IMG/VR virus record: IMGVR_UViG_2706794670_000003
Reading direction: 5' to 3' (one strand)
DNA: 4,552 bases
Source: a virus
Taxonomy: Duplodnaviria; Heunggongvirae; Uroviricota; Caudoviricetes
Shown here: in pieces, positions 1 through 4,552 of the stretch
Numbering within the stretch: position 1 is the stretch's first letter
Layout: each line of letters begins with the position of its first letter
The notes under the pieces: model-generated
The model's database searches: none
Told to the model about the DNA's origin: nothing
What the model saw: the letters and a program-made list of their open reading frames with translations, nothing else
Position numbers and translations under genes: made by a program

Positions 1-184
1 CGTTTACAACGTGGGTGCTGGCAATTTCAGAACATCGACGCTTCTTCGCAAAATAAACCAGGGCGATATCAAAGGCGCATGTGACCAGCTACGTCGCTGG
101 ACATATGCTGGCGGTAAGCAATGGAAAGGGCTGATGACCCGTCGTGAGATTGAGCGTGAAGTCTGTTTGTGGGGGCAGCAATGA
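1..184 (+). CDS. R: Phage endolysin (T4-lysozyme-like, GH24 muramidase), C-terminal fragment; 5' end lies outside the window
   Basis: Frame 2 is open from the window edge to TGA at 182-184 and translates ...[60 protein letters not shown]. From memory this matches the C-terminus of P21/DLP12 (RrrD)-type lambdoid lysozymes. Its stop overlaps the Rz start (ATGA at 181-184), the usual lysis-cassette arrangement. Confidence 0.8.
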
Positions 185-645
185 GCAGAGTCACCGCGAT
201 TATCTCCGCTCTGGTTATCTGCATCATCGTCTGCCTGTCATGGGCTGTTAATCATTACCGTGATAACGCCATTACCTACAAAGAGCAGCGCGACAAAAAC
301 GCAAGAGAACTGAAGCTGGCGAACGCAACCATTACTGACATGCAGCAGAGACAGCGTGATGTTAATGCACTCGATGCTAAATACACGAAGGAGTTAGCTG
401 ATGCGAAAGCTGAAAATGAAACTCTGCGCGCTGATGTTGCCGCTGGTCGTCGTCGGTTGCACATCAAAGCAGTCTGTCAGTCAGTGCGTGAAGCCACCAC
501 CGCCTCCGGCGTGGATAATGCAACCAGCCCCCGACTGGCAGACACCGCTGAACGGGATTATTTCACCCTCAGAGAGCGGCTGATGACGATGCAGATGCAA
601 CTGGAAGGGGCACAGGAGTATATCCGCACTCAGTGCATTAAGTAG
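181..645 (+). CDS. Rz: Rz inner-membrane spanin (i-spanin)
   Basis: ATG at 181 gives [61 protein letters not shown]...QCIK, with an N-terminal TM segment followed by a charged coiled-coil-like periplasmic domain. It is near-collinear with lambda Rz as I recall it. The ORF track's GTG at 169 is a possible alternative start; the ATG is preferred by analogy with lambda. G-rich SD-like run at 171-175. Confidence 0.9.
387..393 (+). promoter_or_regulatory. Shine-Dalgarno sequence for Rz1 (GAAGGAG), internal to Rz
   Basis: GAAGGAG lies 7 nt upstream of the Rz1 ATG at 401. Confidence 0.6.
401..583 (+). CDS. Rz1: Rz1 outer-membrane lipoprotein spanin (o-spanin), embedded in the +1 frame of Rz
   Basis: ATG at 401 preceded by GAAGGAG (387-393). 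Product [60 protein letters not shown] has a lipoprotein signal with lipobox LVVVGC and a proline-rich mature part, closely resembling lambda Rz1. It lies entirely inside Rz. Confidence 0.85.
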
Positions 646-687
646 CCTTTTTATCGTGGTAAACATTTCGCAGGGTATGAGGTATTT

Positions 688-989
688 ATGCCATCACTAA
701 TCCCACGTGCCTGCCGTAAGCGTGGATGTGCAGGTACAACCACAGACAGTTCGGGTTACTGCGATAAACATCGCGGTGAAGGCTGGGTGCAGCACCAGCG
801 CGGACTGAGCCGCCACCAGCGTGGCTATGGCTCAAAATGGACGGTGATTCGTGCCCGTATTCTGAAGCGCGATAAAGGTCTGTGTCAGTTGTGTCTGCGT
901 GTCGGTGTGGTGAGCGAGGCGAAAACCGTCGACCACATCATCCCGAAAGCGCATGGCGGAACAGACGCAGACAGCAACCTGCAGAGTCT
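688..989 (+). CDS. HNH endonuclease (visible part only; 3' end runs into the masked block 990-1070)
   Basis: ATG at 688 with GAGG at 679-682. Product MPSLIPRACRKRGCAGTTTDSSGYCDKHRGEGW...CQLCLRVGVVSEAKTVDHIIPKAHGGTDADSNLQS carries a CxxC plus DHIIP..GG..D..NLQ HNH signature, with a Cys-rich N-terminal region. Position immediately upstream of the terminase genes is as in HK97 gp74-type packaging HNH proteins. Confidence 0.8.
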
Positions 990-1070
990 NNNNNNNNNNN
1001 NNNNNNNNNNNNNNNNNNNNNNNNNNNNNNNNNNNNNNNNNNNNNNNNNNNNNNNNNNNNNNNNNNNNNN

Positions 1071-1415
1071 AGCGAGCCCTGAACAAAGATGAACCTGTTT
1101 TTACGCCCATCAAAGGTGTTGAGCCACCAGAGTGGTTCGCTGAAGAAGATCTCCCTCTCGCCACGATCATGTGGCAACTGACAACCAAAGAACTCTGCGG
1201 TCAGGGCCTGCTGTGCGTGACTGACCTGGCGGTACTTGAGCGGTGGTGCGTGGCCTATGAGTTCTGGCGACGTGCCGTGAAAAATATTGCCATACAGGGC
1301 AACACCATCACCGGTGCAATGGGCGGCAGGGTCAAAAATCCGGAGCTGACCGCCAAAAAAGAACAGGAGTCCGAGATGAGCAGCACGGGGGCAATGCTCG
1401 GACTCGACCCCAGCA
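1071..1415 (+). CDS. Terminase small subunit, P27-like family (internal fragment; both ends fall in masked blocks)
   Basis: Frame 2 between the N blocks translates RALNKDEPVFTPIKGVEPPEWFAEEDLPLATIMWQLTTKELCGQGLLCVTDLAVLERWCVAYEFWRRAVKNIAIQGNTITGAMGGRVKNPELTAKKEQESEMSSTGAMLGLDPS with no stops. The pattern resembles P27-family small terminases and sits directly upstream of the large terminase. Confidence 0.7.
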
Positions 1416-1563
1416 NNNNNNNNNNNNNNNNNNNNNNNNNNNNNNNNNNNNNNNNNNNNNNNNNNNNNNNNNNNNNNNNNNNNNNNNNNNNNNNNNNNNN
1501 NNNNNNNNNNNNNNNNNNNNNNNNNNNNNNNNNNNNNNNNNNNNNNNNNNNNNNNNNNNNNNN

Positions 1564-3121
1564 ACGGGCCGCGAAATTTATTCAGCTGTTGCCGCACACC
1601 AAGGGGGAGTGGGCATTCAAACGGATGCCCATCACGCTGGAGCCGTGGCAGCTATTTGTGATCTGCTGTGCGTTTGGCTGGGTCAATAAAGGCACCCGGT
1701 TGCGCCGCTTCCGGGAGGTGTACACCGAAATCCCCCGTAAGAACGGCAAATCAGCAATCTCTGCCGGTGTTGCCCTGTATTGTTTTGCCTGTGATAACGA
1801 GTTTGGCGCGGAAGTGTATTCCGGTGCCACGACAGAGAAACAGGCGTGGGAAGTCTTTCGCCCGGCGCGACTGATGTGTAAACGCACACCCATGCTGACG
1901 GAAGCGTTCGGGATTGAGGTTAACGCCTCAAACATGAACCGTCCGGAGGATGGCGCGCGGTTTGAACCGCTGATCGGCAACCCAGGTGATGGTTCATCAC
2001 CCCACTGTGCCGTGGTTGATGAATATCACGAGCATGCCACCGATGCGCTTTATACCACAATGCTTACCGGGATGGGGGCGCGACGTCAGCCACTGATGTG
2101 GGCCATCACCACCGCCGGGTACAACATTGAGGGGCCGTGCTACGACAAGCGGCGGGAAGTCATCGAGATGCTCAACGGCTCGGTGCCTAACGATGAACTG
2201 TTCGGGATCATCTATACCGTTGATGAAGGTGACGACTGGACCGGCCCGCAGGTGCTGGAAAAAGCCAATCCAAATATTGGCGTGTCGGTTTATCGCGAAT
2301 TTTTGTTAAGTCAGCAGCAGCGTGCGAAAAATAACGCCCGTCTGGCAAACGTCTTTAAAACAAAACACCTCAATATCTGGGTGTCGGCGCGTTCGGCGTA
2401 TTTCAACTTGGTGAGCTGGCAGAGCTGCGAGGATAAATCACTGACCCTTGAGCAGTTCGAGGGGCAGCCGTGCATTCTGGCCTTTGACCTGGCGCGTAAG
2501 CTGGATATGAACAGCATGGCGCGACTTTATACCCGCGAGATTGACGGTAAAACGCATTACTACAGTGTGGCCCCGCGTTTCTGGGTACCGTATGACACGG
2601 TGTACAGCGTCGAGAAAAATGAAGATCGACGGACAGCCGAACGCTTTCAGAAATGGGTGGAAATGGGCGTTCTGACCGTTACCGATGGTGCGGAGGTGGA
2701 TTATCGCTACATCCTCGAGGAGGCCAAAGCGGCGAACAAAATCAGCCCGGTCAGTGAGTCACCCATCGACCCCTTCGGGGCGACCGGGTTGTCACATGAC
2801 CTTGCTGATGAAGACCTGAATCCCGTCACTATCGTCCAGAACTTCACCAATATGTCCGATCCGATGAAAGAGCTGGAAGCAGCGATTGAATCGGGACGTT
2901 TTCATCATGACGGCAATCCCATCATGACCTGGTGTATCGGCAACGTGGTCGGCAAAAACATGCCGGGTAACGATGATGTGGTGAAACCCGTCAAAGAGCA
3001 GGCGGAAAACAAAATCGATGGTGCAGTTGCGCTGATTATGGCGGTTGGCAGAGCCATGCTGTACGAGAAAGAAGACACGCTGTCTGACCACATTGAGTCC
3101 TACGGGATCCGCTCGCTTTAA
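1564..3121 (+). CDS. Terminase large subunit (Terminase_1/HK97-like); N-terminus hidden in masked block 1416-1563
   Basis: Frame 2 is open from the mask to TAA at 3119-3121 (about 519 visible codons). P-loop-like RKNGKS at 1736-1753; Walker-B-like VVDEYHEH at 2012-2035; C-terminal nuclease-domain signatures [11 protein letters not shown] and [15 protein letters not shown]. Gene order TerS-TerL-portal. Confidence 0.9.
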
Positions 3122-3132
3122 CTGAGGTAATT

Positions 3133-3315
3133 ATGATCATGCTGATTCTCGCGCCTCTGGTGGGCGTGCTGGGTGCGCTTTTGCTGGCGTATGGTGCCTG
3201 GCTGATTTATCCCCCGGCGGGTTTTGTTGTTGCCGGGGCGCTGTGCCTGTTCTGGTCGTGGCTGGTGGCGCGATATCTCGACCGTACACGGCAGTCTGTC
3301 GGCGGAGGTAAATAG
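3133..3315 (+). CDS. Small hypothetical membrane protein (60 aa, two predicted TM helices)
   Basis: ATG at 3133 with GAGG at 3123-3126, 11 nt after the TerL stop. Product [60 protein letters not shown] has two hydrophobic stretches separated by PPAG and a basic C-tail. Its TAG stop (3313-3315) overlaps the GTG start of the portal reading frame. No family recognised. Confidence 0.5.
3304..3308 (+). promoter_or_regulatory. Shine-Dalgarno sequence (GGAGG) for the frame-3 portal start at GTG 3315
   Basis: GGAGG followed by a 6-nt spacer and GTG at 3315. A frame-3 stop (TAA 3309-3311) sits immediately upstream, so GTG 3315 is the first possible start of that frame. Confidence 0.55.
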
Positions 3316-4471
3316 TGTTCTTTTCGGGATTATTTCAACGAAAAAGCGATGTGCCGGTGACCACGCCAGCAGAACTGCTGATGCTATCGGGCTGTCATAC
3401 GACACCTATACCGGAAAGCGGATCAGTAGCCAGCGGGCCATGCGCCTGACGGCGGTCTATTCTTGCGTCAGGGTGCTGGCAGAGTCTGTTGGTATGCTGC
3501 CCTGCAGTCTCTACAAAATCAGCGGTACCCTGAAAACACGGGCGGTGGATGAACGACTGCATAAGTTGGTTTCGGCAAAACCTAATGGCTACATGACACC
3601 GCAGGAATTCTGGGAGCTGGTTATTGTCTGCCTGTGTCTACGGGGGAATTTTTACGCCTACAAGGTAAAGGCACTGGGAGAAGTGGTGGAGCTTCTTCCG
3701 ATAGATCCGGGCTGTGTGGAACCGAAGCTGAACAGCCAGTGGCAGCCGGTTTATCAGGTGACGTTTCCGGATGGTTCCGTGGATGTGTTGACCCAGAATG
3801 AAATCTGGCATGTGCGCACCCTGACGCTGGATGGACTTGTCGGGCTGAATCCCATTGCGTATGCGCGTGAGGCCATTTCACTGGCAGCGGCAACCGAGGA
3901 GCACGGTGCCAGGTTGTTTAGTAATGGTGCGGTGACATCCGGTGTGTTGCGTACGGAACAAAAGCTCACGCCGGATGCTTACGAGCGTCTGAAGAAAGAT
4001 TTTGAGGAGTGTCACACGGGGCTTGGCAATGCTCACCGCCCGATGATTCTGGAAATGGGGCTGGACTGGAAGTCGATGGCGCTGAACGCCGAGGACAGTC
4101 AGTTCCTGGAAACCCGCAAGTTTCAGCTGGAAGAAATCTGTCGTCTGTTCCGGGTGCCGTTGCACATGGTGCAGAACACCGATCGCGCCACCTTCAACAA
4201 TATCGAAGAGCTGGGGCTGGGATTTATCAACTATTCACTGGTGCCGTATCTGACCCGCATCGAACAGCGGATCAACACCGGACTGGTACGAAAAAGTAAG
4301 CAGGGCGTTTATTACGCCAAATTTAACGCCGGGGCGTTACTGCGCGGGGATATGAAGTCCCGTTTTGAAGCCTACGCCACCGGGATCAACTGGGGAATTT
4401 ACTCTTCCAATGACTGCCGCGACCTGGAAGATATGAATCCGCGTCCCGGTGGTGTAATGCCGATCAGTTAA
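3315..4471 (+). CDS. Phage portal protein, HK97 family, with an apparent frameshift near 3415-3425 (possible pseudogene or sequencing error)
   Basis: Frame 2 from about 3420 to TAA at 4469-4471 translates ...ISSQRAMRLTAVYSCVRVLAESVGMLPCSLYKISGTLKTRAVDERLHKLVSAKPNGYMTPQEFWELV...GINWGIYSSNDCRDLEDMNPRPGGVMPIS, which looks portal-like and follows TerL. The best translation start is GTG at 3315 in frame 3, with GGAGG at 3304-3308 and a 6-nt spacer; it gives [36 protein letters not shown]... before hitting TGA at 3447-3449. The frame-2 ORF start at 3224 in the track overlaps the upstream gene with an implausible Cys/Trp/Arg-rich peptide. Confidence 0.8.
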
Positions 4472-4503
4472 GGATCAGTTGACCGATCCAGTGGCTGTGT
4501 AAG

Positions 4504-4538
4504 AATCCGGAAACGCTCACTTGTTTCCGGATTTTTTT
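4504..4538 (+). terminator. Rho-independent (intrinsic) terminator
   Basis: Perfect 11-bp inverted repeat AATCCGGAAAC (4504-4514) / GTTTCCGGATT (4523-4533) with an 8-nt loop GCTCACTT, running into a T7 run at 4532-4538. Located 33 nt after the portal stop. Confidence 0.8.
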
Positions 4539-4552
4539 ATGCACATTGGACA

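Follow-up and report, generated by a model that had tools for sequence, protein, structure and literature searches.

The 4,552-nucleotide stretch of viral DNA analysed here (the window; IMG/VR record IMGVR_UViG_2706794670_000003, Caudoviricetes) carries a gene for a phage portal protein of the HK97 family that is split between two reading frames. We conclude with high confidence that this portal gene is a pseudogene with two independent and real lesions, a one-base deletion in its 5' part and an insertion of the insertion sequence (IS) element IS4 in its 3' part, most likely in the order IS4 and then deletion, and that it belongs to a defective, IS-bounded prophage remnant of Shigella sonnei. 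An earlier interpretation made from the letters alone (the sequence-only reading) had described the gene as frameshifted, listing as causes a true inactivating mutation in a decaying prophage, a sequencing or assembly error and, less likely, recoding. The first-listed option holds, with the deletion present in 14 of 14 S. sonnei loci. The features on which the argument rests, all on the plus strand of the window, are the following.

3304-3308, plus strand: Shine-Dalgarno sequence GGAGG, 6 nucleotides (nt) upstream of the portal GTG at 3315-3317.
3315-3377, plus strand: portal codons 1-21 in the native frame, ending ...PAEL and matching homologue N-termini.
3377-3378, plus strand: site of the 1-bp deletion, CTG GCT (L21 A22) becoming CTGCT by loss of one G of the GG pair.
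3378-3449, plus strand: out-of-frame tail of the 44-codon open reading frame (ORF), reading LMLSGCHTTPIPESGSVASGPCA and ending at TGA 3447-3449; not portal in this frame.
3380-4454, plus strand: portal codons 23-380 and the first base of codon 381 in frame 2 (DAIGLSYDTYTGK...NPRPGG).
3440-3442, plus strand: first ATG of frame 2, used by gene callers as the start of a 343-amino-acid (aa) 'portal protein [Shigella sonnei]'.
4443-4454, plus strand: IS4 target site GTCCCGGTGGTG, 12 bp that were duplicated on insertion, this being the left-hand copy.
4455-4552, plus strand: left end of IS4 (TAATGCCGATCAG...), from its match to IS4 ends.
3133-3315, plus strand: YmfR-like gene for a 60-aa small membrane protein, from the ORF map; relatives are annotated 'ymfR' or 'membrane protein'.

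The start of the portal gene is the one used by its relatives. The GGAGG site ahead of GTG 3315 pointed out in the sequence-only reading was borne out at a spacing of 6 nt, the stop codon of the upstream ymfR gene (TAG, 3313-3315) shares one base with the portal start (TAGTG), and the start context GGAGGnAAnTAGTG is common to 113 related loci. Residues 1-21 match the N-termini of phiP27, ST64B and e14 BeeE as well as 96 other loci, with L21 (CTG 3375-3377) as the last codon in the native frame. The ORF map agrees with the earlier description of a frame-3 ORF (3315-3449, 44 codons) that stops at TGA 3447-3449 and of a portal body in frame 2 (ORF 3224-4471), where genuine portal sequence begins at 3378 (ADAIGLSYDTYTGK... 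/ ADAIGLSYDTYTGKRISSQRAM) and matches homologues. What had been called a plausible portal N-terminus is therefore one up to ...PAEL (21 residues), but the LMLSGCHTTPIPESG that follows is out-of-frame text, and the switch, placed earlier some 35 codons in, lies at codon 21/22. Frame-3 residues 22-44 (LMLSGCHTTPIPESGSVASGPCA) are absent from all intact homologues and present only in the 14 S. sonnei loci.

Alignment with relatives (alignment A1) places the missing G at 3376/3377-3377/3378, directly after codon 21: the window reads GAACTG-CTGATGCT where relatives have GAGCTGGCGGA(G/T)GCT. In a global alignment of 3315-4454 with the portal genes of phiP27, Escherichia coli A36 and STEC308 (92.6-92.8% nucleotide identity, 92.6% to phiP27), this is the sole indel in 1140 nt, and each of the 95 non-sonnei loci of the family whose sequence spans this position has the extra G. 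Putting back one G yields ...PAELADAIGLSYDTYTGK..., the most frequent N-terminus in the family. The location proposed before, a lost base in AGCGG-ATCAG (3415-3425), had to be rejected, as that stretch is identical across all relatives in alignment A1 and the actual missing G sits about 40 nt upstream of it.

To set the window against its family, we used 120 further loci sharing the portal 3' end; 113 loci have the same start context. An unbroken ORF of 413 codons runs from the GTG in 96 of these 113; 14 read 44 codons, every one of them S. sonnei, and among the remaining three one is cut short differently, at 337 codons, and two run off their contigs. The frameshift proposed in the sequence-only reading is thus real beyond chance. 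The check that it had suggested, that intact homologues might start at the equivalent of Met-3440, came out in its favour, as they begin at the equivalent GTG. The locus of 337 codons (L132, from IMG/VR) is read from the conserved GTG and is apparently an independent truncation in another genome.

At the protein level residues 1-42 are conserved across the 96 loci, and the restored protein matches Pfam PF04860 (Phage_portal) over residues 47-373, covering profile positions 2-321 of 321 with a score of 361 bits against a cutoff of 39.1 (E = 5.7e-108). The ratio of nonsynonymous to synonymous substitution rates (dN/dS) of the restored ORF is 0.04-0.05 at a dS of about 0.3 in comparisons with phiP27, A36 and STEC308; therefore the gene has been under purifying selection over nearly all of this divergence and both lesions are recent. 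In place of a single intact ORF of about 413 codons, the window has 44 codons from the GTG and a frame-2 body that ends in IS4; HNH, TerS, TerL and YmfR genes lie upstream, and IS4 followed by host or IS genes, with neither protease nor capsid, downstream. By sequence the gene is a member of the HK97-type portal family, but a pseudogene.

The 44-codon form occurs in S. sonnei loci only. Our sample of this species consists of eight chromosome-scale assemblies from different projects and six IMG/VR contigs. An exact 46-mer with the deletion occurs in 14 of these 14 loci and its restored version in none, and window positions 1564-4552 are 100% identical in most of them, including six of the eight chromosomes. 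A collection of 15 billion proteins lists the 343-aa product running from Met-3440 to the stop in IS4 (P0001) under the name 'portal protein [Shigella sonnei]'; at least 1000 contigs carry it, and it appears in 1695 index blocks, of which 46 include contigs longer than 1 Mb, all named S. sonnei. A degenerate 22-mer across the deletion gave seven matches in species-representative genomes, all in unrelated taxa (Treponema, Bacteroides and others) and about as many as expected by chance, in a set in which S. sonnei is apparently not its own representative; an exact 31-mer gave no match in metagenome contigs. The sole IMG/VR match to a restored 32-mer (L029) was considered as the immediate intact ancestor and set aside, being only 94.8% identical to the window.

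The second lesion lies at the other end of the gene. Portal homology halts at 4454, and 4455-4552 matches 2695 E. coli records under 'IS4-like element IS4 family transposase'. The first base of IS4 was set at 4455 by aligning copies in unrelated contexts, beside mlc, ptrR and ygcG, whose flanks diverge exactly at TAATGCC. The portal ORF stop (TAA 4469-4471) sits inside IS4, so that the frame-2 ORF ends ...NPRPGGVMPIS-stop where phiP27 has ...NPRPGGDVYLTPMNMTT... and 33 more residues; IS4 replaces codons 381-413, the last 33 of the portal. The window itself stops within IS4, and the IS4 transposase (PF13006 Nterm_IS4 and PF01609 DDE_Tnp_1), which begins MHIGQALD, is directly downstream in L022, L024, L026 and L027, four S. 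sonnei loci. The portal/IS4 junction is present in 12 of the 14 loci; of the other two, one contig ends short of the junction and the other is the outlier L020, considered below. The right end of IS4 in L020 is followed by GTCCCGGTGGTG ATGTCTATC..., with the 12-mer copy at L020 4198-4209. The same 12-mer on both sides of IS4 therefore argues that the element simply inserted and duplicated 12 bp of its target, the right-hand copy being known from L020 alone, a single oddly assembled scaffold. IS4 target duplications are 11-13 bp long in ISfinder data. The IS4 stretch of the window also holds the left inverted-repeat end, a hairpin with a T-run (about 4504-4538) and the ATG that starts the transposase gene (4539). 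The truncation at 4454 went unseen in the sequence-only reading.

Both lesions lie in an element that has lost most of a phage genome. Within the window the gene order is the end of a lysozyme gene, Rz/Rz1, HNH (from 688), TerS, TerL, YmfR-like (3133-3315) and portal (GTG 3315). In all eight chromosomes the left part of the element comprises an IS3-family element, a DnaB-like helicase, RusA, a Q antiterminator, an ORF6N protein, holin, lysozyme and Rz, and the right part HNH, TerS, TerL, YmfR, portal and IS4, which is itself truncated by another IS3-family element in most strains. The host genes bamE-recN-nadK-grpE lie beyond the remnant, or raiA-pheA-tyrA-aroF in CP044191. No protease, capsid, tail or integrase gene was found between the bounding IS elements of the eight chromosome-scale assemblies. 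Judged by this gene content, the locus is a cryptic, IS-bounded remnant, and even an intact portal 5' end would not let this locus produce virions.

A minor allele bears on which of the two lesions came first. A 385-aa protein that we built in silico from the restored G and the IS4-encoded tail of the window exists exactly (P0032): it is named 'portal protein [Shigella sonnei]' in the protein collection and encoded by 19 S. sonnei contigs, while four more carry the undeleted protein in a partial form of 379 aa. As judged from these matches, the two alleles share the IS4 truncation, and the 1-bp deletion varies within the species; therefore, IS4 most likely came first and the deletion later.

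Some points weigh against this account of the remnant and its history. The order of events rests on exact protein matches rather than on DNA or phylogeny, and the absence of head and tail genes applies to this locus. Also, L020 (IMGVR_UViG_2663762996_000003, CST26286.1; 2400-4330) has the deletion allele together with an uninterrupted IS4 target site and continues into a protease gene, as would be expected had the frameshift preceded IS4. From there L020 runs on through N, IS4 from about its nucleotide 50, the right junction, a second portal 3' end, and protease, capsid and tail genes. Its 371-aa product occurs on a single contig, the hairpin loop beside the N has the opposite orientation to that in all other IS4 copies, and two of its differences from the window, at 4406 and 4453, cluster at the switch to uninterrupted sequence. 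An assembly chimera that includes a paralogous prophage is the probable explanation of L020, and its right junction suggests that the head and tail half of the prophage persists somewhere in at least that strain. We dropped the order of frameshift before IS4 on account of the one-contig product, the join at N with its inverted loop and the clustered single-nucleotide differences; it is also opposed by the reciprocal allele, with IS4 and no frameshift, on 19 contigs.

In the sequence of events that we favour, IS4 would have inserted after nt 1141 of the restored 1242-nt gene (4454/4455), duplicating 12 bp of target and swapping the last 33 codons for VMPIS and a stop, which would have killed the gene. 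The later loss of one G from CTGGCT would then have shifted the frame after codon 21 of an already dead gene, and this deletion would have been fixed neutrally in the dominant S. sonnei lineage. It is now in the great majority of assemblies, though not in all. Translation from GTG 3315 would yield only a 44-residue peptide. A product re-initiated at ATG 3440 would be short of 42 portal residues at its N-terminus and 33 at its C-terminus, at a locus with no capsid gene. No Shine-Dalgarno sequence precedes ATG 3440, in line with the poor ribosome-binding site noted earlier for this first frame-2 ATG, which lies 7 nt before TGA 3447-3449 of frame 3, a geometry that fits termination-reinitiation.

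A different cause for the two-frame layout would be a sequencing or assembly error in a draft scaffold, leaving the real 5' end intact. The window is indeed a draft scaffold with N gaps, the missing base falls in a GG pair and the undeleted allele exists on 19-23 S. sonnei contigs, but the assembly is not indel-prone, as there is no second indel in 1140 nt of portal, and the deletion recurs in all 14 S. sonnei loci, eight of them chromosome-scale, with the 343-aa call on at least 1000 contigs. The identical deletion in so many independent assemblies therefore excludes a sequencing error in the window, and we hold this part of the earlier reading to be highly improbable as an account of the gene. 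Recoding, in which programmed -1 frameshifting or transcriptional slippage would join the frames into a working portal, has a virtually negligible probability. It is true that any -1 shift within 3315-3446 would bring the two frames together, frame 2 being open from 3206, and that there is an A5 run at 3341-3345; however, 3315-3446 contains no X_XXY_YYZ heptamer in the zero frame, its longest runs are T4 and A5, and a shift at the A5 run would alter the conserved residues 11-21. Moreover, the two-frame layout occurs in none of the 96 homologues and in S. sonnei only, the ancestral single-frame allele persists within the species, and the IS4 truncation at a locus with no capsid, protease or tail genes leaves nothing to select for recoding.

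The two frames could also be two genuine genes, a 44-aa small protein (3315-3449) and a portal starting at Met-3440, and automatic S. sonnei annotation does start the portal at Met-3440 or at GTG 3473. Annotated intact homologues, however, start at the GTG equivalent to 3315 and are 413 aa long, residues 1-42 are conserved across 96 loci, ATG 3440 has no Shine-Dalgarno sequence, and residues 22-44 of the short ORF are confined to the 14 S. sonnei loci. No Pfam match was obtained for the 44-aa ORF, nor was it found as a gene product in the 15-billion-protein collection, and its N-terminal peptide is fused to the portal in 96 homologues, which also answers the question raised in the sequence-only reading of whether it is an independent small protein; we see next to no chance of this arrangement. 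A further explanation, which we consider very unlikely, is that a doubly cut portal fragment is made by termination-reinitiation and retained for some benefit to the host, such as interference with portal-ring assembly in related superinfecting phages. ATG 3440 and TGA 3447-3449 are close enough for coupling, nearly all of the Pfam portal domain (residues 47-373) is retained and the remnant is kept across the species. Yet nothing points to expression or selection, dN/dS cannot gauge constraint since the lesions in a species as young and clonal as S. sonnei, drift alone would retain the remnant in a recent, IS-laden clone, and decay continues, with extra gene splits in L024 and L027. In its specific form, in which the 343-aa fragment re-initiated after the 44-codon leader would be a dominant-negative decoy against portal-ring assembly of SfII-, ST64B- and phiP27-type phages, the idea is more doubtful still; if true, the decoy fragment would be a domesticated anti-phage function of S. 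sonnei.

We return to the pseudogene and its relatives. The phiP27 portal (L38, NP_543090.1), ST64B Sb4, the portals of SfII and SfIV and those of many E. coli prophages are the same HK97-family PF04860 gene. Over 701 bases around the frameshift the window shares 95.7% identity with the Stx2e phage phiP27, as much as 95.9% with E. coli prophages and about 85-86% with ST64B, SfII, SfIV and SfI. The order HNH, TerS, TerL, YmfR-like and portal, with the TAGTG stop/start overlap, is of the phiP27 type, and the restored S. sonnei protein differs from the phiP27 portal at 10 of 380 residues. The terminase-portal module of S. sonnei resembles those of phiP27, ST64B and e14. Whereas portals of the phiP27 type are uninterrupted ORFs of 413 codons with protease and capsid genes after them, the S. 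sonnei gene lacks one G and has IS4 and nothing of these downstream.

The closest analogue is beeE (b1151) of the cryptic prophage e14 in E. coli K-12, which is of the same portal family, has the same ymfR-portal junction and GTG start, and is 85% identical to phiP27 over the first 135 residues. It too is a truncated leftover in a defective prophage; its 5' end is in frame and it is cut after about 135 codons by an internal deletion joining it to jayE, whereas the S. sonnei gene keeps 380 codons, is frameshifted at codon 21/22 and has been truncated by IS4. The 60-aa gene upstream has equivalents annotated 'ymfR' or 'membrane protein' in phiP27, E. coli A36, ST64B and K-12 e14, and its exact sequence is named YmfR [Shigella sonnei] in the protein collection.

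Shigella genomes are described as undergoing pseudogenisation and rearrangement driven by IS elements (PMC8072062). The S. sonnei portal fits this description, having IS4 with a 12-bp target duplication in its coding sequence and further IS elements bounding the remnant. It is ordinary genome decay, one more instance of IS-mediated inactivation in Shigella, and in public records it is already labelled a partial portal protein; it is an ordinary pseudogene. The correct annotation would be a single portal pseudogene with two lesions, not a 343-aa 'portal protein'. Additionally, the deletion is polymorphic (at least 1000 contigs deleted versus 19-23 undeleted, among the latter CSN80531.1 and CSQ26545.1) and could offer an easy lineage marker should it define a clade. 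Together the two lesions illustrate, in clean textbook fashion, how a gene decays neutrally after a first hit in a pathogen that is young and rich in IS elements.

Several smaller observations concern the window and its neighbours in other strains. The runs of N at 990-1070 (81 nt) and 1416-1563 (148 nt) each replace 246 nt of the complete chromosomes by their BLAST coordinates, and on this comparison they are scaffold gaps of the wrong size, not length-preserving masks. The 722-aa 'ORF' at 953-3121 is an artefact of their bridging TerS and TerL. To their left is an embedded spanin pair, an Rz-like gene at 169-645 (Pfam Phage_lysis in S. sonnei calls) with Rz1 at 401-583, the latter encoding 60 aa in another frame within Rz and assigned to PF06085 in L028. 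The lysis cassette is lambdoid, unlike that of phiP27 with its M15 peptidase neighbourhood, and the element is therefore mosaic.

Among the chromosomes, L026 (CP044191.1) has an intact IS4 with raiA-pheA-tyrA-aroF next to it instead of bamE-recN, a flank that, to judge from gene order, indicates an IS-mediated rearrangement. Compared with window positions 1-989, the lysis and HNH-proximal part of L026 is 93.9% identical with 7 gaps, the remainder being 100% identical, which suggests that the left part of the remnant in this strain may have been replaced by recombination. In L024 and L027, TerS, TerL, the DnaB-like gene and even host recN and nadK are each split into two gene calls, and these splits may reflect either further decay or indel errors in the assemblies.

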